The notes: generated by a model not told the origin, from the letters alone. Positions 1 through 62,900 are shown, numbered from the stretch's first letter. The stretch is 64,000 bases of DNA from an uncultured Gemmatimonadaceae bacterium (GCA_963781585.1 CAWAGQ010000011.1:192001-256000); one strand, 5' to 3'. Numbers and translations: made by a program.

Positions 1-967
1 CGCCCGCGGCGAGTACCGCCACGCCAACGCAACCACCAGTCAGGCCGAAGCGGAGGCCGCTTCGGCCGGTGAGCGCGTCGCCGCCATCGCCGCCGCGGCC
101 TACATCCGGGTTCTCCACGCCCAGGCGCGGATGTTCGGCGCCACCATGGATTCTGCGACCGCCGACGAACTGCTCGCGATCGCGAAAGACCAACTCGCCG
201 CCGGCATTGGCGTGGCACTCGATGTCACCCGCGCCCAGACCCAGGCCGCCGAGTTTCGCCTGCGCCTCATCTCCGTGCGCAACGAGCGCGATCGCGCCCG
301 GCTGGACCTGCTCCGCGCGGTCGGGCTCCCGCTCGACGCCGACGTCGCCCTGACCGATTCGTTAGGCGCGCCGCTGCCCGGAGAGAGCGCGCCGGGTGAC
401 TCGACGGCGGTCGCAAGGGCGCTGGAGCGCCGCCCGGTCATACGCGCCGCCGCGGCGGCCGTTGAAGCGGCACGCCGCGACCGCGCCACCGACCGGGCGT
501 ACCGGCTCCCCTCGATTGCCGCCTTCGCCGACAAGGGAGTCACCAGCAATGCCTACGGCAATCTGCTCGGCACCTACAACTACGGCGTCCAGCTCTCGGT
601 GCCGGTCTTCGACGGATTCAAGACCCGCGCACGGGTCCAGGAAGCGGATGCCGTCCTGGAGGCCGCCGAAGCGCGGGAACGCGACGTGCGCCAGCAGGTA
701 ACGCTGGAGGTGCGACGCGCCCTCGTGGACCAGGAGGCGGCGCGGCAACAGGTGAGCGCGGCACAGGAACACCTCCAGCTCGCGCAGCAGGAACTCGATC
801 AGGCCCGCGAGCGTTTCCGCGTCGGCATTGCCGGGAACGCCGACGTGATCAGCGCGCAGCTCGCTCTCGGGTCGTCACGCGGCGCGCTGGCCGACGCCCT
901 GGCCGCACACCTGAATGCCCGCGTCGCCCTCGCGGCGGCTGAGGGCGAACTCACCACGCTACCGTAA
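1..967 (+). CDS. TolC-family outer membrane efflux protein (5'-truncated by window edge)
   Basis: Frame open from position 2; C-terminal 'QARERFRVGIAGNADVISAQ' and 'GVQLSVPVFDG' are typical of OEP/TolC; lies upstream of an MFP and an MFS gene. Confidence 0.9.
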   Translation, partial: ARGEYRHANATTSQAEAEAASAGERVAAIAAAAYIRVLHAQARMFGATMDSATADELLAIAKDQLAAGIGVALDVTRAQTQAAEFRLRLISVRNERDRARLDLLRAVGLPLDADVALTDSLGAPLPGESAPGDSTAVARALERRPVIRAAAAAVEAARRDRATDRAYRLPSIAAFADKGVTSNAYGNLLGTYNYGVQLSVPVFDGFKTRARVQEADAVLEAAEARERDVRQQVTLEVRRALVDQEAARQQVSAAQEHLQLAQQELDQARERFRVGIAGNADVISAQLALGSSRGALADALAAHLNARVALAAAEGELTTLP

Positions 968-1033
968 CGCACGCCATTCCCGGTGCGCGGCGCACCAAAC
1001 CGGAAGCCCGTCCAGCACCCGTCCCCGCCATCC

Positions 1034-2158
1034 ATGGCCACGACTGTCGAGAACCAACCAGCTACTGCTGCACATCCACCGAGCCCCGTGTCACCGCGTG
1101 ACCCGCGAGCGCGAATTCGACGGGCCGTCATCGTCATCGCCGTCCTGATCGCGGCGGTGGTGGCCGGCACGTGGGGGTATCGAGCCTGGCGCTACTCCCG
1201 GAGCCACGAGTCCACGGAGAACGCGCAGGTCGATGGACACATCGTTCCGGTGCTCGCCAAGGTGGGGGGCTTCGTCAGCGAGGTCCGGGTCGCCGAAAAC
1301 GATACCGTCCGGTCCGGGGACACACTCGTTATGCTCGGCGACGAGGAGTACCGCGTGAAGCTGGCGCAGGCTGACGCCGACCTGGCTGCCGCTGCCGCCA
1401 TGGCTGGTGCTGGCGCCGGTGCGGCGACCGGACAGGCCCAGGCGCAGGTGGGCACCGCCACGGGACAACAGTCGGCCATCGACGCGCAGATCGTGGCCGA
1501 GCGCGCCGTCGCGGCGAGGGCGAAATCCGACCTCGCGCGTTATGAAACACTGGCGACCCGCCAGATTGTCTCGCAGGCCCAGCTCGACCAGGCGCGGTCC
1601 GCGGCGCAGGAGGCGGACGCGCGGGTGCAGGCGCTGGAACAACAGGCGGCCGCCGCCGGAGCCACGGTGACGAGTGCCGAAGCCGGCGTCAGGCTGGCTC
1701 ATGCCCGACTGTTGGCCGCCCGGGCGGCGCGCGCGAATGCGGCCCTGCAGCTCGAGTACACGCGGGTGCTCGCCCCCGAGGGGGGCGTGATCGCCCGCAA
1801 GCAGGTCGAGAAGGGGCAGCTCGTGCAGGCGGGTCAGCCGCTCATGGCCATCGTGGCCGACACCGGCGTCTGGATCACCGCGAACTTCAAGGAGACCCAG
1901 CTCGCCACGGTGCACGTGGGCCAGCTGGTGGAGATCGATGTCGACGCGTACCAGGGATGTACGGTCGAGGGCCGGGTACAGAGCATCAGCTCCGCGACCG
2001 GCGCGCGCTTCGCTCTGCTGCCGCCCGACAACGCCACCGGCAACTTCACGAAGGTGGTGCAGCACGTTCCGGTCCGCATCGACGTCACGCGCGGCTGCGG
2101 ACCCGACCGGCCGCTCCGCCCCGGCATGTCCGCGGTGGCCCATGTGCGCGTCCGATAG
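1034..2158 (+). CDS. HlyD/EmrA-family membrane fusion protein
   Basis: N-terminal TM, 'STENAQVDG', 'ANFKETQL', 'FALLPPDNATGNFTKVVQ' EmrA signature; ATG at 1034 preferred over GTG at 983. Confidence 0.93.
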   Translation: MATTVENQPATAAHPPSPVSPRDPRARIRRAVIVIAVLIAAVVAGTWGYRAWRYSRSHESTENAQVDGHIVPVLAKVGGFVSEVRVAENDTVRSGDTLVMLGDEEYRVKLAQADADLAAAAAMAGAGAGAATGQAQAQVGTATGQQSAIDAQIVAERAVAARAKSDLARYETLATRQIVSQAQLDQARSAAQEADARVQALEQQAAAAGATVTSAEAGVRLAHARLLAARAARANAALQLEYTRVLAPEGGVIARKQVEKGQLVQAGQPLMAIVADTGVWITANFKETQLATVHVGQLVEIDVDAYQGCTVEGRVQSISSATGARFALLPPDNATGNFTKVVQHVPVRIDVTRGCGPDRPLRPGMSAVAHVRVR

Positions 2159-2248: not shown

Positions 2249-3868
2249 GTGACATCGGTTCCGGGAGCGCTCACGGGGAGGCACGGTCCAGCCGGCGTGG
2301 CCGCGCGGCCGGTCCCTCGCGATCGCGGCGAGCCGCACAAGTACCTCATCGCGCTCGCGGTCGTGCTCGCGTCGCTGATGCAGGTGATCGACACTTCGAT
2401 CGTCAACGTGGCCATCCCGCACATGATGGGCGAACTCGGCGCCAGCATCGACGAGATCGCCTGGGTGTCCACCGGCTACATCCTCGCCAGCGTCATCGTC
2501 ATCCCCATGACCGGCTGGCTGGCGGCGTTCTTCGGTCGCAAGCGGTACTTCACCACCTCGATCATCATCTTCACGATCGCGTCGTTCTTCTGCGGCGCGT
2601 CGGGTTCACTCGGCACCCTGATCTTCTGGCGGATCGTGCAGGGCATCGGCGGAGGCGCCCTCCTCGCCACATCCCAGGCGGTGCTGTACGAGGCGTTCCC
2701 AAGGGACGAAATCGGCACCGCGATGGCACTGTTCGGGGTGGGCGTGATGATTGGCCCAACGATCGGTCCCACGTTAGGCGGGTGGCTCACCGACAACTAC
2801 AGCTGGCCGTGGATCTTCTTCATCAACGTGCCGATCGGGATCGCGGCCGCGTCGATGGTGGTCGCCTACGTCCACGACACGGCATACCAGATCAAGGCGA
2901 AGACGGTCGACTACCTCGGGATCGTCCTGCTCGCGGTCTCGGTCTCGTCGCTCCAGTATCTGCTGGAGCATGGCCAGCGGGAAGGCTGGTTCGAATCATC
3001 GCTCATCCTGGCGCTGGCCGTGGTCGGGATTGTGGCCGGCTGCGCGCTGGTGTGGCGTGAACTCACGGTCGACGAGCCGGTGGTGGACTTCCGCATCCTC
3101 CGACACCGCGACGTCACCATCGGCATCGTGATCGGGGTGGTCTTCGGGGTCGGACTCTTCGGCTCGGTGTTCGTCCTCCCGATCTTTCTCCAGGGCATGC
3201 TGCACATGTCCGCCTGGCAGACCGGGTGGGTGATCTTCCCCGGCGCGGTGGCGACCGCCATCTCCATGGCAATCGTCGGCCGCATCACCAACTACGTCGA
3301 TGCCCGACTGTTACTGACGGTGGGAACGTCGCTCTTCTTCTATTCGATGTGGGGGCTCGCCCACATGACCGCGACGGCGGGTGCCCAGGACTTCTTCCTG
3401 CCGCTCGTCTGGCGCGGCCTCGGGTTGGGGATGATGTTCGTTCCCCTCACCAACATCACGCTCGCCGACCTCAGCCTGCGCGAGCTGGCGCAGGGGACGG
3501 CCTTGTCGAACTTCCTGCGCCAATTGGGTGGCTCGTTCGGCATCGCCACCATGGCCTCGCTGCTCACCCGGTTCACCAGCCAGGCGAAGAATGTTCTGGT
3601 TGAACACGTGTCGGCGTACGACCCGGCCACGCTGGAGCGACTCTCGATGTTCACGCGCGGGTTCATGGCACGCGGCATGGATCCCGAGACGGCGCGCCGG
3701 ATGGCCCTGACCGCCATCGACAACCAGGTGCTGGGGCAGGCCAACGTGATCGCCTTCGGCAAGGTGTATTTCCTCAGCGGTCTGCTCCTGCTTTCGACAC
3801 TGCCGCTGCTGCTCTTCGTCAAGAAGACGTTGCCCACCGACGAAGGCCCGCGCGCGCACGCCGAGTAG
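2249..3868 (+). CDS. DHA2 (EmrB/QacA) MFS efflux transporter
   Basis: 'MQVIDTSIVNVAIP', 'WVSTGY', 'WPWIFFINVPIG' motifs; many TM helices; follows the EmrA-like gene. Confidence 0.93.
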   Translation: MTSVPGALTGRHGPAGVAARPVPRDRGEPHKYLIALAVVLASLMQVIDTSIVNVAIPHMMGELGASIDEIAWVSTGYILASVIVIPMTGWLAAFFGRKRYFTTSIIIFTIASFFCGASGSLGTLIFWRIVQGIGGGALLATSQAVLYEAFPRDEIGTAMALFGVGVMIGPTIGPTLGGWLTDNYSWPWIFFINVPIGIAAASMVVAYVHDTAYQIKAKTVDYLGIVLLAVSVSSLQYLLEHGQREGWFESSLILALAVVGIVAGCALVWRELTVDEPVVDFRILRHRDVTIGIVIGVVFGVGLFGSVFVLPIFLQGMLHMSAWQTGWVIFPGAVATAISMAIVGRITNYVDARLLLTVGTSLFFYSMWGLAHMTATAGAQDFFLPLVWRGLGLGMMFVPLTNITLADLSLRELAQGTALSNFLRQLGGSFGIATMASLLTRFTSQAKNVLVEHVSAYDPATLERLSMFTRGFMARGMDPETARRMALTAIDNQVLGQANVIAFGKVYFLSGLLLLSTLPLLLFVKKTLPTDEGPRAHAE

Positions 3869-4727: not shown

Positions 4728-7184
4728 TCAGCTTTCGCGCAGTACCCGCATCGGCTCCACCCGCGCCGCGCGCCGTGCCGGCACGTAGCTGGCCACCAGC
4801 GCCACCCCCATCAGCAGCAGCGCCACGCCAACGAACGAAAGCGGATCCGTGGCGGCGACCCCGAACAGGAAACGCGTCAGCAGGCCGGTGAGCGCAAAGG
4901 CGATTGCCGCGCCCACCACCACCCCGATTCCCGCCAGGAGCCCGCCCTCGCCCAGCACCATCCGCACTACATCGCCGGTCCGAGCGCCTAACGCCACGCG
5001 CACGCCGATCTCCCGTGTGCGCTGGGTCACCAGGAACGCGATCACGCTGTACACCCCCAGCGTTGCCAGCACCAGGGCCGCGCCGCCGAACACGCCCACC
5101 AGCACGAGCAGAAACCGCCGGTCGGCCAGCGAGCTCGCCACGATGGTCTCGATCGTCCGGAATCGCGGCGGCACGTCGGGACGCAGCGTGCGCACGATGC
5201 GCTGCACCGGCCCAATGACGGTAGCCGGCGCCGTTGATCGAATAACGACGTTGATCGAGCTCACCGCGTTCGGTCGCTGGCGGTAGAACGCGTAAAACGT
5301 CGGGCGGGGATCAGCCGCCAGACTGGCCTCGTGCACGTCTCCAACCACGCCCACGATCGTGAAGGGCGTGATGTCGCCATCCATGTTGCCGAACTCGATG
5401 ACCTTGCCGATCGGATCCACACCGGGCCAGCGCGTCTTCGCCAGCGATTCGCTGATCAGCGCAACATGGGGCGCGTCGGGCGCGTCGCGATCCTCGAACA
5501 GCCGGCCGCGCAGCAGCGGGATCCCCATCGTCGGGAAATAGCCCGCGCTGGCCACCCGGAACTCCGCGTACCCGGTCCGCGTGGAGTCGTGCATCAGTGC
5601 TTCCATGTTCGACCGATCCAGAGGCTCGTTCACGCTGCGCATGATGAGAAACGTGCCATTGCCGGCGCTCGACTCCGTGAGCGGGAATGCGCTCACTCCC
5701 CCGACTCCGGTCACGCCGGGCAGCTGTCCGATCTGCGACAGCAGGTCGTCGTAGAACCGAACCAGCTCCCGCCTCGCCCCTTCATTGCCCGGGTACGGGA
5801 GCGCCACGTCGAGCACCGTCGCCCGGGTCGTGCGAAACCCGGGGTTCACGTCAACCAGGTGGAGAAAGCTCCGGCCCAGTAGCCCCGCGCCAACCAGCAA
5901 CACGAGCGTCAACGCAATCTGCGACACCACCAGCGTCGAGCGGATCCGGACGCCCGACCCCACGCCCGACTGCGTGCGCTGCGATTCGGCCAGCGCTTCG
6001 CGCAGCTCGCCGCGCGTCCCCCGCCAGGCGGTCAGCAGCCCCAGCGCCACCGCCGCCAGCACCGAGACGCCTAACGCGAATCCGAGCACCGGCAGATCCA
6101 CCCGCACTTCGCCCACCCGCGGCAACTTCCCGGGATCGAGAACGAGCAGCGCTTTCACCCCCTCCCACGCCAGAAGAACACCAAGGAGTCCACCCATCAG
6201 GCTCAACACCAGGGATTCGGCGAGGAACTGCCGCGCCAGACGCCCGCGTCCCGCTCCCAGCGCCAGCCGCAACGCCACCTCGCCGCGCCGCGCCGACAAG
6301 CGCGCCACCAGGAGGTTCACCACGTTGGCGCACGCGATCGCCAGCAGCAGGATCGCGGCACCGAGCAGTACCAGCAGCGCGGGCCGCACGTCGCCCGTCA
6401 TCTGCTCGCGCAGTGGAACGACGGCGGCGTCGGTGAGATTGACGAAGTCGCCGTATTGCGACTTGAGCCGTCGCGAGATGGCGGTCATCTCGCGACGGGC
6501 CGTCTCCAGGGAGACACCGTCCCGAAGCCGCCCCAGCACCCGCCAGTTGTGCGCCGTGCGGCTCGGATACCGCTGACTGAGCTCGCGCGGCATCCACAGA
6601 TCGACCCCCACGGGGAAATCGACCTGCGGCGGCATCACGCCCACCACCGTGTAGGTCGCCCCCTCCATGGCGAGCGTCGCCGAGCCGACGGCCGACGGAT
6701 TGGCGCCGAGGTAGCTCCGCCAGAATGCGTCGCTCACGACAACGGTCCCCGGCCCACCAAACGTCTGCTCGTCGCGAGAGAAGAGACGACCCCGCGAGGG
6801 ATGCACCCCGAGCGCCGGAAAGAAGTCGGCCGAGACACTCGCCGCGCGGACGCGCGCCGGCTCCGATCCGCCGGACACCGACACCACGCTTCCGCCGGTG
6901 AACTCCGCGAGGGCGGCAAAGCTATGGCTCTGCGATCTCCAATCCTCGAAATTCGGATCCGCCGCATTCATCTGATGGCCGCTCGCACCCACCTCCCAGA
7001 CCTGCACGATCCGGTCGGCGCCGGGATACGGAAGTGGGCGCAGCAGCACGCCGTTGATGACCGAGAAGATGGCGGTCGTGGCACCGACGCCAAGTCCGAG
7101 CGTCAGAACCGTGACGCCGAAGAAACCGGGTGTGCGCAACAACGCGCGGGTCACATAGCGAATGTCGCGGAGGAAGGAATCCAT
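4728..7184 (-). CDS. ADOP-type duplicated ABC transporter permease (MacB_PCD/FtsX x2)
   Basis: 'TLGLGVGATTAIFSV', 'IACANVVNL', 'RTREIGVRVALGA', C-terminal 'PARRAARVEPM'. Confidence 0.92.
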   Translation of the reverse strand: MDSFLRDIRYVTRALLRTPGFFGVTVLTLGLGVGATTAIFSVINGVLLRPLPYPGADRIVQVWEVGASGHQMNAADPNFEDWRSQSHSFAALAEFTGGSVVSVSGGSEPARVRAASVSADFFPALGVHPSRGRLFSRDEQTFGGPGTVVVSDAFWRSYLGANPSAVGSATLAMEGATYTVVGVMPPQVDFPVGVDLWMPRELSQRYPSRTAHNWRVLGRLRDGVSLETARREMTAISRRLKSQYGDFVNLTDAAVVPLREQMTGDVRPALLVLLGAAILLLAIACANVVNLLVARLSARRGEVALRLALGAGRGRLARQFLAESLVLSLMGGLLGVLLAWEGVKALLVLDPGKLPRVGEVRVDLPVLGFALGVSVLAAVALGLLTAWRGTRGELREALAESQRTQSGVGSGVRIRSTLVVSQIALTLVLLVGAGLLGRSFLHLVDVNPGFRTTRATVLDVALPYPGNEGARRELVRFYDDLLSQIGQLPGVTGVGGVSAFPLTESSAGNGTFLIMRSVNEPLDRSNMEALMHDSTRTGYAEFRVASAGYFPTMGIPLLRGRLFEDRDAPDAPHVALISESLAKTRWPGVDPIGKVIEFGNMDGDITPFTIVGVVGDVHEASLAADPRPTFYAFYRQRPNAVSSINVVIRSTAPATVIGPVQRIVRTLRPDVPPRFRTIETIVASSLADRRFLLVLVGVFGGAALVLATLGVYSVIAFLVTQRTREIGVRVALGARTGDVVRMVLGEGGLLAGIGVVVGAAIAFALTGLLTRFLFGVAATDPLSFVGVALLLMGVALVASYVPARRAARVEPMRVLRES

Positions 7185-7478: not shown

Positions 7479-10400
7479 GTGACCACAGACATCAGGACGC
7501 AACTTCAGGCGACACTCGGCGCTGCCTACACCCTCGAGCGTGAACTCGGGGGCGGCGGCATGTCGCGTGTGTTCGTGGCCAACGAGACCGCGCTCAACCG
7601 CAAGGTGGTCGTGAAGGTCCTGCCCCCCGACCTCGCGGCTTCGGTCAGCGTCGACCGCTTCAAGCGCGAGATCCAGGTCGCCGCAGCCCTCCAGCACCCC
7701 CACATCGTTCCCGTGCTGGCCAGCGGCGAAGTGGAAGGCCTGCCCTTCTACACCATGCCGTTCGTCGATGGAGCGAGCCTGCGCGCGCGACTCGCGGGCG
7801 GCCCCCTTCCCATCCCCGAGATCACGGCCATCCTGCGCGACGTGGCCAAGGCATTGGCGTTCGCGCACGATCGCGGCGTCATTCACAGGGACGTGAAGCC
7901 GGACAATGTGCTGCTCACAGGCGGCAGCGCGACGGTCACCGACTTCGGCATCGCCAAAGCGCTGAGCGCATCACGCCTCGAAGGGGTCGCGGCAGCCACG
8001 CTTACCCAACTCGGCACGTCGCTCGGCACACCGGCGTACATGGCGCCCGAACAGGCGGCGGGCGACCCGTCGGCCGATCATCGTGCCGACATCTATTCAT
8101 TTGGCGCCATGGCGTACGAGCTGCTGACCGGCCAGCCGCCGTTTCACGGACTGTCGCCGCAGAAGCTCCTCGCGGCGCAAATGGGAGAGCGCCCCGTACC
8201 GGTGTCCGACCTTCGTCCCGACACGCCGCCGGTGCTGGCCGAGCTGGTGATGCGCTGCCTCGAAAAAGAGGCGCAAGCACGGCCACAGCGCGCCGCCGAT
8301 ATCCTGGCCGCGCTCGACTCCTCAACCAGCGCCGGGTCGCAAGCCGCGATGCCCGCCGTGCTGCTGGGAGGGCGTGGGGCGCTGAGGAAGGCGCTTGCCA
8401 TCTACGCCGGCGCCTTCATCGTCGTGGCCGTGCTGACCAGGGCGGCGATCGTCGGCATCGGGCTTCCCGATTGGGTCTTTCCCGGCGCGCTGATCGTCAT
8501 GGCGCTCGGACTCCCGATTATCCTCTTTACGGCCTACGTGCATCGCGCCACGCAGCGGGCGCTCACCGCCACCCCGACGCTGACCCCCGGCGGTTCGGCG
8601 GCGCCGGCCTCGACCATGGCCACCCTCGCCATCAAGGCCGCGCCGATGATGAGCTGGCGTCGCACCACGATGGGCGGCGTGTATGCGGTGGGCGGCTTCA
8701 TTGTCCTGGTCGGTGCCTGGATGCTGATGCGCGCGTTAGGCATCGGACCGGCCGCGTCGCTCATGGCGGCCGGCAAGCTCGACGCGCGGGAACGCGTCAT
8801 CCTCGCGGATTTCAAGGGTCAGTCCGAGGATTCCACGCTGCGCCTGACGGTTACCGAGGCGTTCCGCGCAGACCTCGCGCAATCCAACGCACTCACGGTG
8901 ATGTCCGCCAACTCCGTTCGCGAGACGCTCCGTCGGATGCAGCGCCCGATCACCACCCCGGTGGACTATCCCGTGGCCCGGGAGATCGCCACCCGCGAAG
9001 GCATCAAGGCCGTCATCGAAGGCGAGGTCCTGAGCCTCGGCGGTCGCTACGTGCTGTCGGCGCGCCTGGTGGCCGCCCAGACGGGCGACGAGCTCGCGAG
9101 CTTCAGCGAGAATGCCAGCGACGCCAACGACATCATTCCCGCCATCAGCCGGCTGTCGAAGAAGCTGCGCGCCAGGACCGGCGAATCGCTCCGGAATATC
9201 CAGAACGCACGGACGCTGGAGAAAGTGACAACCCCGTCCCTCGACGCACTGGAGAAGTACATGTCGGCCATCCGGGCGATGGAGATCGACGGGGATTTCG
9301 CACGGGGCCGCGAGCTCCTCGAGCAGGCGATCGCCATTGACACCGGATTCGCCATGGCCTACCGCAAGCTCGCGGTCGAATTGAACAACCGCGGGCTGGA
9401 GCCGGCGCGCGTCTCCGAAGCCATCCAGCAGGCGTACGATCACCGCGAGCGGCTCAGCGAATCGGAGCGATACCTGACGGAGGCGATCTACTACTCGTAC
9501 GGACCCCATCCGGACGCATCCAAGGTGACATCCGCGTACGAGACACTCCTGCAGCGCGATCCGGAAAACACCACCGCCCTGAACAACCTCGCCATCGTGT
9601 ACATGTTCCGGCGCCAGTTCGCGCGCGCGGAAACGCTGCTGGTACGCGGGGTCGGGCTCCAGAACGCCGCGGCCGTATATCACGTGAACCTGATCGAAGC
9701 GCAGCTGGAGCAGGGGAAGCTCGCCGAGGCCGAGGCGACTGTGACACGGGCGGTGACCAGCCTGCCTCGGAATCCCGGCATCGCCATGTACGTGCGGGGC
9801 CAGTACGAGCTCGCGCGCGGGAAGTTCGACGACGTCGCGCGGTTTGTCGACAGCATTCGCGCCGACCGCGGTGGAGATCTGTCCACGCAGCGGGACGCGG
9901 ACCTCATGCTGGCCACGCTGTCTGCCGTCCGGGGCAAGTTACAGGACGCCGTCCGCTGGAGGCGCACGTCGCGGGACGCCGCGCTGCAGATCGGGGCGCC
10001 GCAGGCGAAGCTCCGAACCACGCTCGATGAAGCGGTCGTCGACATGTGGTATCGCGACCGGAAGGACGAAGCTGTCAGGGGTGTTGACACAGCACTTCGT
10101 CAGGGCGCCCTGGATTCCTTGCGGGCGGACCTGCGCCCCTACGAAAACCTGACATGGTTCTACGCTCGAGCGGGTCAGGTGGCACGAGCCAGAGCCATGC
10201 TGGCTGGTTATGACAGCACCCGGTCCGCACAGGAACCCGAGCAATTCGCCGCGGCCCAGCATCGCATGCAGGGGGACATCGCGCTCGCCGAAAGCCGATG
10301 GGATGACGCAGCACGCGAACTGCGCGCCGGACAAACCGGCGAGTGCACCACCTGCACCCTTCCCGACCTCGCCCGTGCCTACGACCTCGCCGGCAATGCC

Positions 10401-13432: not shown

Positions 13433-15505
13433 TTACCGCGCGATCGCCACGGCCGTCACCAGTCTGACGAGCGCATCCAGATCGCGGAGGTCCAGCACTT
13501 CGGCCGGACCATGTGAATAGCGCCCCGGCCACGACAGCCCGATGTTCGGCGGGCCCCACTGCTGAATCGACGAGCCGTCGGTGCCGCCGAACGTGGTGCC
13601 GATCTGCAGCGGAATCGTATTGGCCCGGGCGATGCGGACGATGCGGTCGCGCTCCGGACGCGGCACCAGGCTGGCGTTGTCGAGGGCCCGGAGCACCGGT
13701 CCGGCGCCTAACGGAGCGTACGCGAAATGCGGGGACTCGAGGGGCGTATCGCTCGTGACGAAGGTGTCGATGCTGTACACCCGCCGGAGCGAGGTTCCGT
13801 GTCGCTCACCGAAATAGCGGGCGCCATTGAGCCCGCCCTCCTCCTGTACCGACCATACGAAGATGACCTTGTGCGAAAGCGAGTCGGGCTTGAGACGCCG
13901 AATGGCGAACAGGAGCGCGGTATCACCCGAGCGGTCGTCGCTCGCGCGGCCAGTCATTCGCGTCCCGGCCAGCGGCTGCGCCCGCTTGTACGCCGTCACG
14001 CTCAGCCCGGGGTGCACGCCGCGCGCGACCAGCTGCCCCGAGTCGAGCCCGAACCATGCGGTGAGCGCGCCGGGCGACTTCACTCTCGCCGCATCACGTG
14101 GAACGAACACGCCGCGCAGGGATTCCGGGGCGGCACCGCCTGGGTCCGCGTCGAAATGGAGGTACGCCGGCACGCCTTCCCACGACGTGATCACGGCGCC
14201 CCCGCGCGTACGCAGGGTAGCGCGTCCGTCGGGCAGGATGCCCGTTACCTCGAACCCGACCTCGTCGGTGTGCGCGAGGAACGCCACCGAATCGCGGTCG
14301 GGACCCATCGCGACGATGATGTTTCCCATCGAGTCCACCACCGCGATGCGCCGCGCCCAGTCGGGCAGCGCCGCCAGCACCGCCGCCCGCACGCGCCATT
14401 CATGCCCGGACACGCCGGGCAGATCGGCAAGCGCCATCCACTGGCGCGCGAGATCGGCGTATCGGTCGGCGTGAGGCGCCGCGCGCGAGCTGTTGAGTGG
14501 CGGAGCGACCCACGCGTCGCCCGTGAGCCGGACGTTCGCCGCATCCGCCACAGCTCCCTTCAGTCTGCGCGCATCGTCGGCGGAGATGGACTCCACAAGC
14601 GACCCTCCCCATCTCACGCGCGGCCCGATCACGCGCACGGAGTCGATGTCGATCACGCGTGACGCTGCGCGAAACTCCTGACCCAGCCGACTCCGTGTCG
14701 AGACGGCGTCGTAGGCCGTGTTGCGTCCCTCGCTGACGATGGTGAGCGCATCGTAACTGCCCAGGTGCGCGAGAAGGGCGCCCAGCCCCACCCATCCCAG
14801 CGGCGCCTGTGTCGAGAGCACGAAGATGGTCTCTCCCGATTGCACCTGGCCGCTCGATGCGGTCGCGACGGCAGCGCATCCGGCGCGCTGTCCCGCGCCC
14901 GGGCCGGCGGTAAATCCCTCGTAGGTCCACGGCGGCCGGTCCACCGTGACCGGATCCAGGAGCGCGATGCCGAGCGCGCGCACGTCCGCAGCAGTGGCGG
15001 CGCCGACGTCGATCCAGAGGTCGTCCACGCCAACCACGGTTGTGTCGCCGCGATGCTGTGCGGCAAAGTGCCCGTTCGCCACGGCCACGACGCCGGGCAC
15101 CGGGCCGCGCGCCGAGAAGACCTTGATCTGCTGCGCCTCGTGGAACTGATCCCACAGCGGATGCGGCGGCTGGCCACCCACCCGGCGCAGACGCAGATAT
15201 GCCTGGTCGGTGATCTGGCTGACCACGTAGCCGGAATAATCCAGCGCGCACGCCACCACGCGGCGCGGCGAGCCGCTGCCGGAATGCCTGACGAGATTTC
15301 CCCAGACGTCGGCCGTCCATCCGGGGAGTGTCGCCGCGAGGCGCGTGGTGGCCACCACCGGATCGCCGGGCGGTGCGTCGAGCGCGGTCCAGGCCGCGAC
15401 GGCGTCGACCACCTGCCGGTTCGGATCAGGGGCCTGCGCTCCGAGGCAGGCGGGGACGGCCGTCAGGATCGCAGCGGCCCGAAGAGACTTGGCGAGGTCC
15501 GGCAT
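13433..15505 (-). CDS. Secreted M42/M20-clan metallo-aminopeptidase with two tandem M42-like domains
   Basis: Signal peptide; C-terminal domain has AHTDEVG, SDDRSG, QEEGGL, GGTDG, RYSHGP; N-terminal domain has a similar layout but lacks these ligands. Confidence 0.85.
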   Translation of the reverse strand: MPDLAKSLRAAAILTAVPACLGAQAPDPNRQVVDAVAAWTALDAPPGDPVVATTRLAATLPGWTADVWGNLVRHSGSGSPRRVVACALDYSGYVVSQITDQAYLRLRRVGGQPPHPLWDQFHEAQQIKVFSARGPVPGVVAVANGHFAAQHRGDTTVVGVDDLWIDVGAATAADVRALGIALLDPVTVDRPPWTYEGFTAGPGAGQRAGCAAVATASSGQVQSGETIFVLSTQAPLGWVGLGALLAHLGSYDALTIVSEGRNTAYDAVSTRSRLGQEFRAASRVIDIDSVRVIGPRVRWGGSLVESISADDARRLKGAVADAANVRLTGDAWVAPPLNSSRAAPHADRYADLARQWMALADLPGVSGHEWRVRAAVLAALPDWARRIAVVDSMGNIIVAMGPDRDSVAFLAHTDEVGFEVTGILPDGRATLRTRGGAVITSWEGVPAYLHFDADPGGAAPESLRGVFVPRDAARVKSPGALTAWFGLDSGQLVARGVHPGLSVTAYKRAQPLAGTRMTGRASDDRSGDTALLFAIRRLKPDSLSHKVIFVWSVQEEGGLNGARYFGERHGTSLRRVYSIDTFVTSDTPLESPHFAYAPLGAGPVLRALDNASLVPRPERDRIVRIARANTIPLQIGTTFGGTDGSSIQQWGPPNIGLSWPGRYSHGPAEVLDLRDLDALVRLVTAVAIAR

Positions 15506-40388: not shown

Positions 40389-41184
40389 CTAGGTTCGGTG
40401 TCAGGTGTAGTCTCATTGGACCTAGACGAAGTGCGGAATCGTGTCGCTCTAGGCCTGTTACCATCGCAATTTACAGCAGCCCGGGACGCTGCGCATCGGA
40501 TCTTGGCCGCGCAGGGGGTGGACACGGCAGCGCTCGTGTATGACTCGACCGGCGCTCCCAAAATGGATTCCGCTCCACCAACACTGACCAGCGAGACAAC
40601 CGATCCCCTGGCTGGGGGATTGTGGATGATAACCTACGACGGTGATTCGTTCTATGGCAACTGTACGCTCGGATTTGTAGCGCGGCGGAACGATACGTTA
40701 GGCTTCGTTTCCGATTCTCACTGCACGACGAGCTTTTTTGGAATCGGGCAGAGCTTAGGCGATTGGGTGCATCAGCTGGCGACGCGTGTTGTCGCCCGGG
40801 AAGCCGTCGATCCCGACGGCTACATCTGCGGCATTCTCTTGTTTGAATGCAGAGCCAGTGATGCCGCCTTCTTCTCGCAGTATCAGACTCAGCCGATGAC
40901 GGTCGGGTTGATATTAAGAACGCAGGCACCTACCGCTGATGGGTGGTCAGCAGGGCAAGGTTCAATTGCGGTGAACAGCACCCACCCCTACTTCTTCGTC
41001 ACTCGGGAAGAGAACGAGGACGTCTACACCGGCCAGGAGGTTCACAAGATAGGCGCGTATGGCGGCTGGACTAGCGGGGAAATAACTGGCACGTGTGTCG
41101 ACTACACGCCGGCGTACCCCCAGGAGATTCGTTGCATGTACAAGGCCACCTATTGGTCCACGGGAGGTGACAGCGGGGGCCCGG

Positions 41185-44941: not shown

Positions 44942-45998
44942 GGTGCAGGACGGTGCATACGGCGCCCTCGAGCATCTCAATTCGGTCACGTTAGGCATAC
45001 CGAGCGCCGACCTGGCCCGGAACGTCGACGAGCCGCTGGAAGAGATCGCCCACGAGTACTTCCACGCGTGGAATATCATGCGGATCCGGCCGGCGGAATA
45101 CCCGGCGGTGACGTGGGACGCGTTCCCGGCGGCCTCCGGGCTCTGGTGGAGCGAGGGGCTGACGATGTTCTACGCCGATCTGCTGCTCCGGCGGGCAGGA
45201 ATCCCGGTCGCACACCCCTCGCGTACCGCACACCTCGAGTCGCTGATCGCGCGGTATCTCTCGGAGCCGGGAGATTCGCATCTCTCGCCCGAGCGCGTGA
45301 GTCGTGGCGCCTACGGCGCACCCGACGCCCTCGGCGACTATCAGGCCTCGACCCACCTGCAAGGCGAGTTGCTGGGCGCGATGCTCGATCTCATGGTGCG
45401 AAGTGCCACGCGCGGCACGCGGACCATCGACGACGTGATGCGTCTGATGATGCGCCGATACGGCGGCGCGGTGGGATTCCACAGTGGGGACATCGCTGGC
45501 GTGGTGGCGGCGGTCTGCGGGTGCGAGATGAAGACTTTCTTCGACACCTACGTGCGCGGCGCCGCGCCGATCGACTTCAACCGGTTCCTCGCCCTGGTCG
45601 GACTGCGGGTCGACATCACCAGGAGACCGGCGGTGGACGAGCGTGGGCAGCCGGTGCCGAACCGGCGGATCTATGTGTTCAATCCGGCGACGGACGCGTC
45701 GACGCGTCTGCTGCTGAGCGATCCCGAGAGCGAGTGGGGGAGAGCCGGATTGCACAGCGGCGACGTCATCATATCGATGAACGGGGCGAGTGTGCCGAGC
45801 TTCGCGGCGTTTCGCCAGATGGTGGCAGGCTGGCGCGTGGGCGACAGCGTGCGCGTCGTGGTGTCACGGCCCACCGGTCGATATTCGGCGACCGTGGTCA
45901 TCGGGCAGGCGCAGCAGGTCACCGCGCGGATCAGCGAGATCGACGGGGCCAGCGCGGCGGCGCGCAAGCTGAGGGTGGAGTGGGAGGCGGGGCGGTGA
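44942..45998 (+). pseudogene. 5'-truncated duplicate of the M61 peptidase 3' half (copy of 35343-36399)
   Basis: About 1057 bp near-identical to 35343-36399 with a few substitutions; no signal peptide or N-terminal domain. Confidence 0.92.
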
Positions 45999-47372: not shown

Positions 47373-50072
47373 CTACTCGGCGCGGATCGCTGCGATCGGA
47401 TCGGTGCGGGCCGCCCGGATCGCCGGCAGCAACGCGGCGATGACTCCAACCCCGAACAGGAGCGCGATCCCCGTTCCCAGGGCCATCGGATCGTGCGGCG
47501 AGAGGCCGTACACGAGACTCCGCGTCAGCCGCAGCAGCGGGAACCAGAGGACGAAGCCCGCCACGAGTCCCCCGGCGATTGTCCGCAGTGAATCGCGCAA
47601 CACGACCCACGACACCGCCGCCGGCGAGGCGCCTAACGCAAGCCGCACGCCCATCTCGTTCGTCCGCCGGGTCACCGAGTAGCTGATCACCCCGTACAAC
47701 CCGATCGCCGCGAGCAGCAGCGCCAGCACACCGAAGCTCCCCGCCAACCGCGCCACCATCCGCTCGGTCGTCAATCCCCGCTCGAGCAGTTGCTCGACCA
47801 CCATCACGTCGCGCACGGGAAGGTTGGGATCCACCGACGCGAGCGCCGTCCGGATTCCGGAGATCGCGGCCTGCGGCGCACCGGTCGTACGCGCCTCGAC
47901 GCTGGTGATGTATTCCTGCGGGCGCTGCGCCAGCGGGTGGAACACCAGGGACGCCGGCGCCTCGCGCAGGCTGTTGACGCGGACATCGCGCACCACGCCC
48001 ACCACCTCGAGCTCCGGCGGCGTGTCATATCCGAAGTGCTTCCCGACCACCGTGTCCGTGCCGAAGAATCGTCGCGCTGCGGTCTGGCTGATCACCACAA
48101 CCTGAGGGGCGTCCCTGGTGTCGCGATCGGTGAAGGCTCGGCCGCGGACCAGGGGGACGCCGACCGTCTGGAAATAGTCCGGCGTCACGAAATCCTCCTG
48201 CCCGGGTTTGGTCCCGGTCGCTTGTTCGCGGCCGGGCACGGTGAATCCGCTGGTTCGCCGCGATCCGGTCCCGAGCGCGTGGTCCGACAGACTCGCCGAC
48301 CGCACGCCGGGCACCGCCCGCACCGACGCCAGCAACCGGTCGTACAGCGCCGGCAGTTGCTCGAAGGTGTAGCCGGCGGCGCGCAGGTCGAGCTGCGCGG
48401 TCACCAGCCGCTCGCGCTCGAACCCGGGGTCGATGCTCAGCAGGTTCCGGAATGTGCGCACGAACACGCCTGCCGAGGTCACGAGCACCAGCGAGAGCGC
48501 GATCTGCGCCATGACGAGCAGACGTCCGAGCGGCAGCCGATGCGATTGGGGTGCGGAAACCACTCGCGTTCCGCCCTTGAAGCTGTCGTGCAGATCGGTA
48601 CGGGCCACGCGCAGCGCGGGCGCCAGGCCGAAGAGCAAACCGGCGACGATCGTCACGCCGAACGCGAACGCGAGGACGCGTCCGTCGAGCGACGCGTCGA
48701 GCGGAATGGCCCGGGAGCCCGTGGATGCCAGACGCAGCAGCGCCCGCGTCGCCCACTGGGCGACGCCGAGCCCGAGCAGTCCGCCGATGATCGCGAGCGT
48801 GAGGCTCTCGGTCAGCGTCTGGCGGACGAGTCGTCCGGGCCTGGCGCCGAGGGACACGCGCACCGCCATCTCGTGCGAGCGTGCGGCTCCCCGCGCGAGC
48901 AGCAGCCCGGCGAGATTCGCGCAGGCGATGAGCAGGATGAGACCCACGCTCGCCATCAGGGCACGCAACGGATCACCGAATTCCTCGCGCAGCGGCGAGA
49001 ATCCACGGCTGATCGGTTGCAGCAAGACGTGCGCACGCGACCAATGCGCCCGGGTCGCCGAGTCGCTATTGGCCAGCTCGGCGTCGAGGTTCGCGCGGAA
49101 CGGCAGGTCGAGACGTGCCGCGATGGCGCGTGCCTGCGCCGGATCGACCCGCGCGACCAGGGTCAGCCAGCTCATGCCGCTCTGCGGAAGCCACGGTTGA
49201 CCGGGGTCCGCGTTCGACGCGCCGAAGTTCGAGATCCAGTGCAGGTTGTGCTGCATAACGAGCGGCACGAACAGGTCCATCGTCTGACCAACCGTGAGTC
49301 CACGGAACCCGACCTGGGCGACGCCGATGATCGTGAGCGGTACGCCGTTGACGCGCATCGTGCGGCCTATGACCGACGGATCGCGTCCGAAGCGCCGGTC
49401 CCAGAAGCTCTCCGTGATCACGGCCACCGGCCCGCCGCCTAACGTGCGGTCGTCGTCGGGACCGATGAGGCGGCCGGCCAGGGCGCGAACGCCGAGCATG
49501 GAGAAGAATCTCCCGGAGACCAGCTGCGCGGCGACCGCCTCCGGCCGGTCGCCGATCGTGGCGTAGAGCCGCGACACCGAGGTCATGGCGCCGATGCGGA
49601 GGGTATCCGGCAGCGCCTGCTGGTACCGGAGCATCAACGGGTGCGACACCAGGTCATTGTCGTCGTCGATGCCCGTTCTCGTGATCGTGTGCAGCTGTTC
49701 GGGACGCGCAACGGGCAGGGCCCGGCGCATCAGCGCGTCGAGGATGCTCCAGACCGACGTGTTGGCGCCGACGCCGATGGCGAGTGTCAGCGCGGCGGCG
49801 ACGCTGAAGCCGGGCGACCGCGCCATGGCGCGCAGTGCATAACGCGTGTCGTGCCACCAGTCCTCGATCCACCGCGTACCGCGCGCATCGCGGGTGCTCT
49901 CCTTCACCTGCTCCAGGCCGCCCAGGTCGACGCGGGCCCGCCGGCGCGCTTCGGCGCGCGAGACTCCGAGGCGCTCGAGGTCATCGGCGGCGGTGTCGAG
50001 GTGGAACTGGAGCTCCTTCTCCAGCTCACGCTCCAGTGCCCGGCGCCGGACGAGACGGGTGATCCACGACAT
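47373..50072 (-). CDS. ADOP-type duplicated ABC transporter permease
   Basis: 'ELEKELQFHL...ARRRAR..LGGLEQVKE' permease prefix; 'IACANLAGLL'; '[13 protein letters not shown]'. Confidence 0.93.
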   Translation of the reverse strand: MSWITRLVRRRALERELEKELQFHLDTAADDLERLGVSRAEARRRARVDLGGLEQVKESTRDARGTRWIEDWWHDTRYALRAMARSPGFSVAAALTLAIGVGANTSVWSILDALMRRALPVARPEQLHTITRTGIDDDNDLVSHPLMLRYQQALPDTLRIGAMTSVSRLYATIGDRPEAVAAQLVSGRFFSMLGVRALAGRLIGPDDDRTLGGGPVAVITESFWDRRFGRDPSVIGRTMRVNGVPLTIIGVAQVGFRGLTVGQTMDLFVPLVMQHNLHWISNFGASNADPGQPWLPQSGMSWLTLVARVDPAQARAIAARLDLPFRANLDAELANSDSATRAHWSRAHVLLQPISRGFSPLREEFGDPLRALMASVGLILLIACANLAGLLLARGAARSHEMAVRVSLGARPGRLVRQTLTESLTLAIIGGLLGLGVAQWATRALLRLASTGSRAIPLDASLDGRVLAFAFGVTIVAGLLFGLAPALRVARTDLHDSFKGGTRVVSAPQSHRLPLGRLLVMAQIALSLVLVTSAGVFVRTFRNLLSIDPGFERERLVTAQLDLRAAGYTFEQLPALYDRLLASVRAVPGVRSASLSDHALGTGSRRTSGFTVPGREQATGTKPGQEDFVTPDYFQTVGVPLVRGRAFTDRDTRDAPQVVVISQTAARRFFGTDTVVGKHFGYDTPPELEVVGVVRDVRVNSLREAPASLVFHPLAQRPQEYITSVEARTTGAPQAAISGIRTALASVDPNLPVRDVMVVEQLLERGLTTERMVARLAGSFGVLALLLAAIGLYGVISYSVTRRTNEMGVRLALGASPAAVSWVVLRDSLRTIAGGLVAGFVLWFPLLRLTRSLVYGLSPHDPMALGTGIALLFGVGVIAALLPAIRAARTDPIAAIRAE

Positions 50073-59589: not shown

Positions 59590-59912
59590 TGGCAAACAAG
59601 TTCGGCGACTTGCGGAAGAAGATGGCGCCTGACCATCAGGCGCGCGCCGGGGCACGGACCAAAGCCATGCTGGACGGGATGGCATTGGCTGAACTCCGCC
59701 GCGCCCGTGAGCAGTCGCAGGAATCGCTGGCTGCGGCGATGAAGGTATCGCAGCCCGAAATCTCGAAGCTCGAGAAACGTGCAGACACCTACATCAGCAC
59801 GCTGCGCAAGTACATCGAAGCGTTAGGCGGATCGCTGGAGATTGTGGCGCATTTCCGGGAGGGCGACGTGCGGATTACGCAGTTTGGTGAGCTCGAGGAC
59901 GCGCACGCCTGA
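59589..59912 (+). CDS. XRE-family HTH antitoxin (HigA-like)
   Basis: 'LAELRRA...SQ..LA....VSQ..ISKLEKR.D..ISTLR.YIEALGG.L'. Confidence 0.9.
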   Translation: MANKFGDLRKKMAPDHQARAGARTKAMLDGMALAELRRAREQSQESLAAAMKVSQPEISKLEKRADTYISTLRKYIEALGGSLEIVAHFREGDVRITQFGELEDAHA

Positions 59913-59992
59913 CGGAACGGACGGCATCCATGGCAGAGTTTTTCAGCAGGCTGCTGCTCGTGCCACTCCAGACTGACTCCCCACAGTTTCAT

Positions 59993-62900
59993 TCACGGCT
60001 TCATCGGCGGCGCCGGCGGCACATCGTCCCAGTTGATGATCGCGTTGAACACCATGTTGAACTCCCCATGGTTCTGCCACCGGTAAATCGGATTGTTCGC
60101 GAACAGCAGCACGCGCCCCTTCCCGTTGTGCGCCTGCGGCACGTCGACCGCGAACGCCCGCCCCTTGATGTTGTCGGCGCCCACCATCAGCCCGCTCAGC
60201 ACCGACGCATCGCCGCCCACGTACTCGGCCAGCACGTTGGCCTGATCGGCCACCCCCACCCGGAAGACCTGCGACCCCTGCCCGTACTTGATCGGGAAGA
60301 TCTTGCTGGCATATCCATAGAACACCGGGTGCTCGGGACGCGTGATCTCCGCCTGGATGAGCGGCTTCTGCGCGTTCACCCCCTGCGGTGACTCGAGATC
60401 GATCGACCGGGCGAGGCCGAAGTCGATGGGATAGCGCACCGCCTGCAGCGTGGTGATGAGCGTGCCGCCGGCGTCGAGGAACTTGCTCGATCGCCTTCAC
60501 CCCGGCCTCACCGAACCCGCCGCTCATGTCGTCGGTGGATCCGTACATGCCGAGGAACTGGTACTTGTCGCTGTGCTGATAGGGCTGCGGCCGCGCGGCC
60601 GGCGACGCGAGCACCGCGGCGCGGTTGATGTTCTGCGCCGCCATCACGATCACGTCGTAGTCCTTCTCCAGATTCCCCTGGGCGACGCGTTCCTTGAAGA
60701 TCAGATCGTACGGGATGCCGAACTTGTCGAACGTGAACCGGTACCACCCCAGCTCCTGCGTCCCGCTCCACTGCGAGTAGATCGCCACCCTCGGCACGTC
60801 GGCATTGTGCGAGGGCACCGCCGGCACGGTCGACAGCGCCGCCGCGGTCAGGCCTAACGACTCGGCCGCCGAGCGCGCCGTCTGGAGATCGGCCGCGGAG
60901 CCGGTCACGATGAACGACCCGGCGCGGAAACGTGTCGTTCGCGGCCACGAACTGCTGCTCCGCAACCTGCATCGGGACGTTCTTCAGCCGGTAGCGGAAC
61001 GTGATCATGTTGTTCGACCCGTAGTGCGCCACCGCGAGACCGGCCGTACCGGATCCCGCCACCGTCCCGTGCACGACCACCGTGTCCACCGGCGTCACCT
61101 TCGCGTCGAGCACCGCCTTGTCGTCGATCTGCTTGACGTCGACGTTGAACGCGTACCCCATCGACCAGCCGCTGTCGTCGTACGTGGAGAGGTTGGGGTC
61201 GGGATAGTCCTGGCGCTCGAGGAAGTTCTTCGCGAGCCGGCCATACGGCTGGTTCAGCTTGATGACATACGACCCCGCCGGATAGGCGACGCTGTCGAGC
61301 GTGACCGGCCCGGTGAGTCGCCCGATCTCGATCCCCTGCGCGCGCAGGATGTTGAGCAGCGTCGCGACCCTGGTCATGTCGCGCTGCACGGGGAAGACGT
61401 AGCCGTAGGGCGCCCTGGTCTTGCCGTCGTTGATCGAGTTGCGGGTCTTCACGTAGAAGTTCTCGACCACCAGGTTCGGGAACATCGACGTGAGCTGGAG
61501 CGCCGAGAGCACTCCGGTCTCCATGTAGTTGGTATTGTTGCGGCGCGAGAAGGTCTGCACCGCGTTAGGCGGAATCGGGATGCCGCGATACCACTCGCGC
61601 GGCTGGCCGCCGCCGCGCCCCGTGGGGGCGCCGCCCCTTCCGCCGAACCCGCCACGCCCTCCGCCAGCGCCTCCACGTCCGAATGGCGTCTCGGCGGTCC
61701 CGCCCGCGGTGGAATCCGCGACGGCACCCCGGCCGCCGCGTCCGCCCCCGCCCCCGCCCCCGGCCCCGCCCCCGCCGGCTCTGCCTCCACGACCACCACG
61801 ACCGCCACCAGCCCGGCCGCCACCGCCCGCCGCTGTCGTGTCAGTCGCGCCGCGGCCACCCCGGCCACCCCGGCCACCCCCCGCACCGCGACCGCCGCTC
61901 GCGACCGTGGTGCCGCCCTCGGGCGCGTCAACGCCCGACTGCGTCTCGTACATCTTCATCATGCCGTTATGATTGTATGCCACCGAGCCGAGGTAGCCGG
62001 GCGACCAGCCGTCCATGAACGCGTGGGTGTACACGCCCGGCATCCCCCACTTGGTCATCTGCGCCAGCTCCCAGTTGGAAAAGAACGGTAGCTCGGCGAA
62101 GAGCAGCGGATCGAGATTGGGATTCTGCGGAGGCCCGCCGCTGTACGTGTACATCAGGGCCTGCGCCTCGTGCAGGTCGTGCATGATCGGCGGATGCGCC
62201 GTGAAGTACCAGTCGGTGATCGCGCGCATCGACATCTGCGAGAGGTTGATGTCGCGATTGTTGTCGTGATAGACGTACTTGCCCCAGTAGGGAAGTCCGC
62301 CGATCAGCCCGCCGCGACCACCGCCTCGTCCGCCTGCGCCAGCTCCACCGGCCCCGCGGCCACCACGTCCCGCGGCGGTGGTGTCGCGTCCCGCGGCCGC
62401 GGTATCGCGTCCCGCGGCGGTGGTGTCGCGTCCCGCGGCAGTGGTGTCGCGTCCCGCGGCGCTGTCGCGCGCCACCTGTGCCGCGACCTCGAGGCCGCGA
62501 TAGAACCAGTCCACATTACGGTCGCGCCCGTCAGGCTCGGCGGCCGGCGTGACCGAGACGTAGACGTTGTCGCGGATCTGGGTGATGAGGGGTGACGTCT
62601 CCGTCGCGAGCCGGTAGACCAGCTCCATCAGCATCTCCGACGGCCCCGTCTCGCCGCTGTGCAATCCACCGATGAGGTGATAGTGCGGCTTGGTGGTGGC
62701 GATCAGCTCGCGAATCTGCGCGTCGGAAAGCCCGCGCGGGTCGGCGATCTTCGCGAGGTTGGCGCGATTGTGGGCGAGATTCCGGATGTTCTCTTCCGAC
62801 GAGACCCAGACGACGACGAGCTCGCGTCCCTCATCGGAGCGGCCAATGGTCTCGACCTTGACGCGCGGCGTCGCCTTCTCGAGGGCGCGGTAGTACTTCA

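Follow-up and report, generated by a model that had tools for sequence, protein, structure and literature searches.

A highly iterated, asymmetric octamer accumulating at the DNA level in a Gemmatimonadaceae lineage: a candidate uptake-type self-DNA signal

Introduction

A 64-kb stretch of DNA from an uncultured Gemmatimonadaceae bacterium (hereafter the window, meaning the whole stretch) carries one non-palindromic octamer, CGTTAGGC, so often that the question arises of what maintains it. An initial annotation of this sequence proposed either a DNA-uptake signal or a genome-wide site for a binding protein. In this work, we followed the octamer through the window, through other loci of the same and of other phyla, and through the plasmids of Gemmatirosa kalamazoonensis (Gemmatirosa hereafter). 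Our results indicate that the word accumulates by point substitution at the DNA level, is restricted to one lineage with its own variants, and disregards orientation and replichore; we tentatively interpret it as a self-DNA signal comparable to the DNA uptake sequence (DUS) of Neisseriaceae and the uptake signal sequence (USS) of Pasteurellaceae.

Soils are rich in Gemmatimonadota, a phylum described as rarely cultivated in the Gemmatirosa methylome paper, among others. Hyper-abundant words, in turn, have been assigned to three classes in the accessible text of Elhai (2015), namely Chi, uptake sequences and the highly iterated palindrome 1 (HIP1), and an uptake-type word would be new for this phylum.

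Materials and methods

CGTTAGGC was counted on both strands. Species-representative genomes were sampled through an alignment scan with the window permease, by which at least 615 stretches were matched (best identity to the window permease among the matches listed, 41%); 79 loci were taken, amounting to 1.35 Mb, mostly from Acidobacteriota and with 13 from Gemmatimonadota. Gemmatirosa was picked via megablast of the window against plasmids, and its sample comprised the complete plasmid 2 (21 stretches) and 50 kb of plasmid 1; a subset of 550 kb was used for expectation counts, and 500 kb of plasmid 2 for the anatomy of registers, codons and densities.

Chance expectations were obtained from dinucleotide-preserving shuffles (n = 100), from Markov models of orders 1-3, with the order-2 background also computed with the motif masked, and from 300 synonymous-codon shuffles of conservatively called genes, in which every protein and the codon usage were kept. 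Pairwise nucleotide comparison of L001, L074, L004, L005 and L002 revealed no similarity in any of the 7 pairs compared out of 10 possible (L001 against L074 included), and these loci were therefore taken as independent samples. Since only two window proteins had a usable hit in the Gemmatimonadota loci (identity of 45% or more, covering 60% or more of the protein), intragenomic duplicates were substituted for orthologous sites between species.

Results

Abundance of the octamer in the window

The 23 copies listed by the initial annotation, 14 on the plus and 9 on the minus strand, were all recovered at their positions, giving 0.36 copies per kb. The 2-3 copies it had expected by chance proved too many, our estimates ranging from 0.45 to 1.10: dinucleotide shuffles yielded a mean of 1.10 (sd 1.0, maximum 5, none of the 100 reaching 23), and Markov models 1.05, 0.56 and 0.74 at orders 1, 2 and 3, respectively, or 0.45 at order 2 with the motif-masked background. 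At orders 2 and 3, CGTTAGGC ranks first among the 8-mers of the window. Its edges are sharp, with 24 copies of GTTAGG and 23 of GTTAGGC, and the base on the 3' side is A or G in 20 of the 23 copies, the other flanking bases being uninformative. The fuller consensus reads YGTTAGGCR and is alike in all samples, consisting of C (82-100%, otherwise mostly T), GTTAGGC, and A or G.

As had been cautioned, a few copies are related by descent. Positions 35343-36411 match 44942-46010 (98.7%) and 36448-37340 match 47371-48263 (86.8%), so that the copies at 44989 and 47631 are duplicates of those at 35390 and 36708, leaving 21 independent copies; further, those at 8734 and 28898 occupy the same codon in two kinase paralogs that are 67% identical.

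Distribution beyond the window and lineage variants

The octamer is not confined to the window. It is the top 8-mer of two other Gemmatimonadaceae loci from metagenome-assembled genomes, L001 (32 copies in 22.6 kb) and L074 (30 copies in 22.6 kb), with a density of 1.3-1.4 per kb and 62 copies observed against 0.66 expected; L004 holds 6 copies in 8.7 kb and L005 4 in 17.7 kb, and the remaining 75 loci contain 11 together in about 1.28 Mb. Exact copies, or any trace of the word, were absent from eight other Gemmatimonadota loci, and the 66 loci of other phyla hold 11 in total. In Gemmatirosa, CGTTAGGC is by far the top 8-mer of plasmid 2 (1,040,503 bp, 72.8% GC), with 701 copies (0.67 per kb) and 20-44 in every 50-kb bin, and 30 copies were counted in the 50 kb of plasmid 1; over the 550-kb subset, 338 copies compare with 2.35 expected. 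The word is thus spread over the window, one complete replicon, part of a second one and unrelated contigs, unchanged across genomes of 62-73% GC, and it occupies about 0.3-1.1% of the DNA (arithmetic over the window, L001/L074 and plasmid 2).

Most one-mismatch neighbours (positions 2-8) occur at or below expectation, and the secondary variants that are enriched differ by lineage: TGTTAGGC in Gemmatirosa (53 against 0.5 expected), CGTTAGGT in L001 and L074 (13 against 0.4) and CGTTATGC in the window (6 against 0.4). Locus L002 has no exact copy and carries CGTTAGG[G/T] at 8 of its 9 GTTAGG sites, a dialect of the word.

Candidate sister signals in other loci were rejected. Nearly all copies of TACGGCGT (L064, L068 and L072) encode the L-Y-G-V of tandem permease genes, all but one of them on one strand, and those ranking first in L077 and L028 form tandem arrays; in L028 (Blastocatellia), TACCGTCT-based arrays within 9883-15185 recur in similar form near 9.9, 12.6 and 15.1 kb. 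Plasmid 2 also contains short tandem arrays unrelated to the motif. One kind repeats about 11 bp around GGACTGAAG (76 hits) and the other about 9 bp around CAGAGGAC/CGCAGAGG (99 hits), the latter kind being found as well in the Gemmatimonadaceae locus L077.

Accumulation at the DNA level

Within conservatively called window genes, 17 copies were observed against a mean of 0.33 (maximum 3) in the synonymous-codon shuffles, and two further sets gave 24 against 0.43 and 103 against 2.98. In agreement with the initial annotation, most window copies are written NCG-TTA-GGC (X-Leu-Gly), i.e., 14 of 23 by conservative calls or 17 of 23 by a longer list of open reading frames (ORFs) in which two are doubtful; the others comprise one sense GTT-AGG, two antisense CCT-AAC and two on stop codons, the remainder being non-coding. 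Two more of its statements held, as TTA is scarce outside the motif (called genes contain 18 TTA codons, 14 of them within it) and only 14 of 53 [S/T/P/A]-Leu-Gly peptides (26%) are written with the motif, which means that the protein does not demand it.

The 500 kb of plasmid 2 offered a broader view of the registers: 123 copies read NCG-TTA-GGC and 12 C-GTT-AGG-C in sense, 71 read G-CCT-AAC-G and 14 GC-CTA-ACG in antisense, and 88 are non-coding; per kb, non-coding DNA carries 1.09 copies and coding DNA 0.53. Overall, the word takes up every one of the six reading registers, the four open ones included. An interpretation at the level of the sense strand or of RNA, suggested by the 14-17 sense X-Leu-Gly copies among the 23 of the window, was dropped because Gemmatirosa coding copies are 85 antisense against 135 sense and because L001 has copies in all four registers. 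The motif contains 123 of the 172 TTA codons of this Gemmatirosa DNA (72%), 12 of 25 TAA stops and 11 of 68 TAG stops. Synonymously permissive sites are filled to 23% for [STPA]-L-G and 47% for x-P-N-[DEGVA] in Gemmatirosa, and in L001 to 52% ([STPA]-L-G), 24, 67 and 40% by register. Furthermore, Gemmatirosa has more Pro-Asn dipeptides than expected (observed/expected 1.52, against 1.12 for Asn-Pro), which suggests that the motif has shifted amino-acid sequences too.

Two comparisons were made at matched sites. In the invariant permease peptide R-x-A-L-G-A, the A-L-G is encoded by GCG-TTA-GGC at 7 of 13 sites in the window, L001, L074, L004 and L005, at 5 of 17 in Gemmatirosa and at none of 205 in all other loci, where TTA was used 3 times; the identical peptide is therefore encoded differently in the motif lineage only. 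A motif present in one member of an intragenomic pair (82 alignments, 70-97% identity) is found unaltered in the other in 41.5% of cases, against 20% for all 8-mers, and members that lack it carry synonymous alternatives such as CGCTCGGC or GCCCAACG, mostly without indels, so that gains and losses are point substitutions. A dispersed mobile element, of the repetitive extragenic palindrome or miniature inverted-repeat type, received no support, the flanks holding no information outside positions -1 to +8 and the copies standing in frame. Taken together, these results show that CGTTAGGC accumulates at the DNA level by point substitution.

Orientation, spacing and methylation

The GC skew of plasmid 2 flips at about 650 kb, adjoining ParA/ParB genes, which we took as the putative replication origin, and 61% of genes are co-oriented with the implied replichores. 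The motif shows 335 plus and 366 minus copies; its best half-split is 54.8% co-oriented, a value matched by 76 of 500 permutations, and we estimate that gene orientation together with the sense preference would account for roughly this small excess. The plus fractions of individual bins scatter around 0.5, with none of the skew flip typical of FtsK-orienting polar sequences (KOPS) or architecture-imparting sequences (AIMS), and the counts at the putative origin (600-700 kb: 31 and 37) and terminus (100-200 kb: 33 and 34) resemble the remainder. The lack of replichore polarity and the even density at origin and terminus argue against Chi, KOPS/AIMS and macrodomain-type sites.

Spacing in Gemmatirosa is near-exponential with short gaps scarce (10.7% below 300 bp, against 17.6% expected), and 5-kb bins are slightly under-dispersed (mean 3.06, variance 2.76). 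Local GC and the number of copies per 5-kb bin are positively correlated (rho +0.25, p 0.009), even though the word is AT-rich compared with Gemmatirosa DNA. Stretches of 6 kb or more without the motif contain ordinary genes (SusC/D, glycosidases, kinases, ParA/ParB), and mobile elements are not obvious in them, which leaves the GC correlation as the one sign that the word is absent from foreign DNA. Inverted adjacent pairs within 60 bp are few (11 of 700 on plasmid 2), three of them tight (220550, 445821 and 755113) and potentially folding as hairpins. The motif also occurs in small tandem arrays on this plasmid, with 12-bp and 15-bp units (108118-108173 and 697547-697599).

The Gemmatirosa single-molecule real-time (SMRT) methylome paper reports only RGATCY, ATGCAC and CCAGN7TCA as N6-methyladenine (m6A) motifs. 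As CGTTAGGC is absent from these and is not its own reverse complement, a methylated palindrome in the manner of HIP1 is excluded.

Copies of the window and their gene context

All window copies are given in Table 1. As for the registers other than X-Leu-Gly that had been described initially, those over the dsbA stop (22386) and the IS256 stop (43562), the antisense copy (61563) and the non-coding copy at 44865 stand, whereas the copy at 40331, previously placed in non-coding DNA, may lie at the start of a transposase ORF.

Table 1. Copies of CGTTAGGC in the 64-kb window (IS, insertion sequence)
Position	Strand	Register or codons	Context
360..367	+	sense TCG-TTA-GGC	outer-membrane efflux (OEP) gene
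2772..2779	+	sense ACG-TTA-GGC	MFS transporter gene
4986..4993	-	sense GCG-TTA-GGC	invariant R-x-A-L-G site, MacB/FtsX duplicated permease
6069..6076	-	sense GCG-TTA-GGC	permease that also holds 4986
8734..8741	+	sense GCG-TTA-GGC	Ser/Thr kinase-TPR gene 1
13706..13713	-	sense CCG-TTA-GGC	M42 peptidase gene
21937..21944	+	sense ACG-TTA-GGC	DUF1259 gene
22386..22393	-	CGT-TAG-GC, read from coordinates	over the stop codon of a DsbA-like gene
24379..24386	+	TCG-TTA-GGC	close to the 3' end of ORF 23256-24395 (doubtful gene call)
27430..27437	+	sense GCG-TTA-GGC	HEAT-repeat gene
28898..28905	+	sense GCG-TTA-GGC	Ser/Thr kinase-TPR gene 2, codon equivalent to 8734
35390..35397	+	sense ACG-TTA-GGC	M61 peptidase gene
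36708..36715	-	sense GCG-TTA-GGC	R-x-A-L-G site of a truncated permease copy
40331..40338	+	antisense CCT-AAC, or non-coding	first codons of a DUF772 transposase ORF, if coding
40696..40703	+		IS cluster; doubtful ORF or non-coding
43562..43569	+	GCC-TAA-CG on the - strand	over the stop codon of an IS256-type transposase
44865..44872	-	non-coding	between IS256 and the duplicated M61 fragment
44989..44996	+		duplicate of 35390 (98.7% identical segment)
47631..47638	-		R-x-A-L-G site, full-length permease; duplicate of 36708 (86.8% identical segment)
49437..49444	-	sense ACG-TTA-GGC	permease that also holds 47631
59821..59828	+	non-coding
60852..60859	-	sense C-GTT-AGG-C	M14 peptidase gene
61563..61570	+	antisense G-CCT-AAC-G	M14 peptidase gene

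The gene content of the window is ordinary by Pfam, including efflux components, five MacB/FtsX duplicated permeases (presumably of the kind labelled 'ADOP'), two Ser/Thr kinase-TPR genes, peptidases and an IS cluster. The five permease genes or fragments (4728-7184, 36450-37316, 47373-50072, 52386-54827 and 63506-64000) are 27-37% identical, the recent duplicate excepted, and the kinase-TPR paralogs (7479-10652 and 27637-30831) share 67% identity over 1.7 kb, with the motif at amino acids 419-421 and 421-423, respectively. The IS cluster lies within 35343-48263, flanked by the two copies of the M61-peptidase/permease segment, whose halves are unequally diverged (98.7% over 1069 bp, 86.8% over 895 bp); it contains an IstB-like ORF, a DUF772 transposase, an rve integrase and an IS256-type transposase. 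The IS256-type (Transposase_mut) gene (43564-44767, minus strand) is frameshifted or broken, being represented by two overlapping ORFs (43973-44767 and 43564-44154) that match profile positions 20-240 and 240-378.

The GC skew of the window turns from negative to positive near 16 kb (about 14000-17000), with no replication genes nearby. A direct repeat of 185 bp (96.8% identity) occupies 56954-57138 and 59993-60177, and a motif-free stretch of lower GC (49.4-59.8 kb) includes its first copy and stops just short of the second. The sole RNA gene found in the window by ARAGORN and Rfam is a tRNA-Asn (GTT) at 32291-32365.

Discussion

The initial annotation had proposed to judge the octamer by codon-preserving shuffles, one-mismatch neighbours, its presence outside the window and its replichore polarity. 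The enrichment survived the shuffles (17 against 0.33), the neighbours were not equally frequent, the word was enriched in L001, L074, L004, L005 and the Gemmatirosa plasmids too, and no polarity appeared on the complete plasmid 2 (54.8%), so that a polarised role of Chi/KOPS type is excluded. Independence from orientation and replichore and restriction to a lineage with variants of its own are thus properties of the word. Of the proposed uptake signal or genome-wide binding site, what stands is a real, lineage-wide signal at the DNA level, and we infer the choice between the two from the statistics of the word.

Among the word classes recognized so far, these statistics fit only the uptake sequences. 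We therefore favour, tentatively, a DUS/USS-like self-DNA signal of a Gemmatimonadaceae group spread by biased transfer, because the word is asymmetric and orientation-free, sits at permissive sites, is enriched between genes and has one-base lineage dialects; the accessible text of Frye et al. (2013) describes permissive sites, occupancy of about 1% of the genome and dialects for DUS. In such a scheme, a surface or periplasmic DNA-import receptor would bind the double-stranded word in either orientation, and motif-bearing fragments from relatives would be imported and recombined more often than motif-less ones; alleles with the motif would then replace alleles without it, and the word would eventually fill all places that coding tolerates. 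We infer here the biased-import step, the receptor and the competence of these bacteria. Homologous recombination and ComEC homologs have been reported for soil Gemmatimonadetes populations in the accessible part of PMC7305173.

Several points weigh against a DUS/USS-like signal. In the same part of PMC7305173, the ComEC homologs of the five soil populations are given as 'two domain' (four) or as a fragment (one), and none of those listed has neighbouring recombination genes; further, the literature searched contained no report of uptake, transformation or competence for Gemmatimonadota. Inverted pairs of the DUS terminator style are rare (11 of 700 adjacent pairs), an extended flank of USS type is absent around the motif, and IS elements of the window carry the word (40331 and 43562), so the window gives no sign of depletion from mobile DNA. 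The Gemmatirosa data represent two megaplasmids, the chromosome and a 21-kb high-copy element being outside the sample, and the genome of the window is represented by the window. Finally, weak selection on binding sites in very large populations could give rise to identical statistics.

A minor possibility is that CGTTAGGC is no uptake signal and that Chi, uptake sequences and HIP1 are joined by a fourth class of genome-wide tag, to which it would belong. As a 'self' mark independent of orientation and with no m6A detected, it might be recognised on duplex DNA by a protein of the nucleoid, of repair or of immunity, or else a sequence-directed conversion process might write it; in either form, its force would have sufficed to change the usage of codons, stop codons and dipeptides in genera spanning 62-73% GC.

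The site of an abundant chromosome protein, such as a nucleoid organiser or a segregation or occlusion factor with thousands of sites under weak selection, seems to us unlikely. An exact, asymmetric word of 8-9 bp usable both ways would suit it, as would the even, near-Poisson density over a whole replicon, the higher density in non-coding DNA and the constancy across genomes of differing GC. Known occlusion or macrodomain sites, however, avoid or mark the origin or terminus, and the corresponding bins are unremarkable; moreover, the cost is high (72% of TTA codons, half of the TAA stops, the Pro-Asn excess), and a candidate protein was not identified.

Still less probable is a Chi-like signal, at which a helicase-nuclease of RecBCD, AddAB or AdnAB type would switch from degradation to RecA loading and which would mark self DNA. 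A non-palindromic 8-mer occurring about once per 1.5-2.8 kb falls within known Chi densities, and the word is over-represented on every sampled replicon and contig of the lineage. Against this, replication polarity is missing, the best split of 54.8% being not significant and explained by the 61% gene co-orientation together with the sense preference; known Chi sites are enriched only a few-fold, far less than the roughly 50-140 fold reached here on the rarest codons, and non-coding DNA is enriched.

Two further explanations are very unlikely. The first regards the word as a functionless by-product of a sequence-directed repair or conversion bias, very-short-patch-like or nickase-linked and possibly tied to 5-methylcytosine (m5C). 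SMRT sequencing is insensitive to m5C. Such a tie is therefore compatible with the methylome paper, and the rarity of most one-mismatch neighbours at positions 2-8 and the very high saturation of permissive sites are as this explanation would have them; nonetheless, a process correcting eight positions of an asymmetric word has no known precedent, the Gemmatirosa methylome gives only the three motifs cited above, and the C-to-T variant TGTTAGGC is enriched instead of removed. The second, to which we give similarly little credence, is a signal for biased export or packaging (gene-transfer-agent, phage-like packaging, conjugative or secreted DNA) with the same drive as import. All transmission-bias statistics apply to it equally, but the pac and cos sites known so far number only a few in each genome, and no packaging or secretion genes were linked to the motif. 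The two duplicated copies and several at equivalent paralog positions might point to an artefact, whether of codon usage, of protein conservation, of a dispersed mobile element or of local duplication; such an artefact is refuted by the random flanks, the codon-preserving shuffles and the 0 of 205 permease sites elsewhere, with all registers and non-coding DNA being used.

No description of CGTTAGGC was found in the full-text literature within reach, subscription journals and bioRxiv supplements lying outside it; the octamer as a query retrieved only primers and nematode telomere repeats. The Gemmatirosa genome and methylome paper does not mention it, the main texts (without supplements) of the oligomer papers PMC2843746 and PMC4390886 mention neither Gemmatimonadota nor the motif core, and the main text, likewise without supplements, of PMC1939737 does not mention Gemmatimonadota.

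If CGTTAGGC were indeed an uptake signal, no earlier one of the DUS/USS kind would, to our knowledge, be on record outside Proteobacteria; its presence would mean that Gemmatimonadota transform naturally and recognise kin in doing so, and adding the word to donor DNA could make these bacteria tractable; we know of no genetic tools for this phylum. Whatever its function, the word is a sensitive marker for assigning contigs to the lineage and for spotting foreign DNA in it, and it reveals a DNA-level force overriding codon choice, accounting for most TTA codons, about half of the TAA stops and apparently the extra Pro-Asn. The cultured, non-pathogenic strain Gemmatirosa kalamazoonensis KBS708, with a finished genome, allows direct testing.

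Comparison with known systems

The DUS of Neisseriaceae, read by the minor pilin ComP, resembles CGTTAGGC in being short, asymmetric and present in both orientations. DUS occupies about 1% of the DNA and CGTTAGGC about 0.3-1.1%, and both share permissive coding sites, enrichment between genes and one-base lineage variants, as far as the accessible text of Frye et al. (2013) describes them for DUS. The two differ in sequence, which is unrelated, in length (8-9 bp against 10-12 for DUS) and in phylum, and the inverted terminator pairs common for DUS are rare here; a ComP-like receptor and a demonstrated uptake bias belong to DUS, whereas CGTTAGGC is known from sequence statistics. With the USS of Pasteurellaceae it shares a core of 8-9 bases, a frequency of roughly one per kb and a cost in codons and amino acids, and its spacing is slightly more even than random; unlike USS, it lacks AT-rich flanking tracts, and the sequences are unrelated.

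HIP1 of cyanobacteria (GCGATCGC) is likewise an octamer iterated to a similar degree over a whole lineage, and has been proposed as an uptake signal in the accessible part of a 2026 paper. However, HIP1 is palindromic and methylated by dedicated methyltransferases, according to that part and to the accessible text of Elhai (2015), whereas CGTTAGGC is asymmetric and not among the Gemmatirosa m6A motifs. Chi and KOPS/AIMS, in turn, are asymmetric words of 5-8 bases over-represented genome-wide, as CGTTAGGC is. Those words are co-oriented with replication, whereas CGTTAGGC is not, and its enrichment is far stronger.

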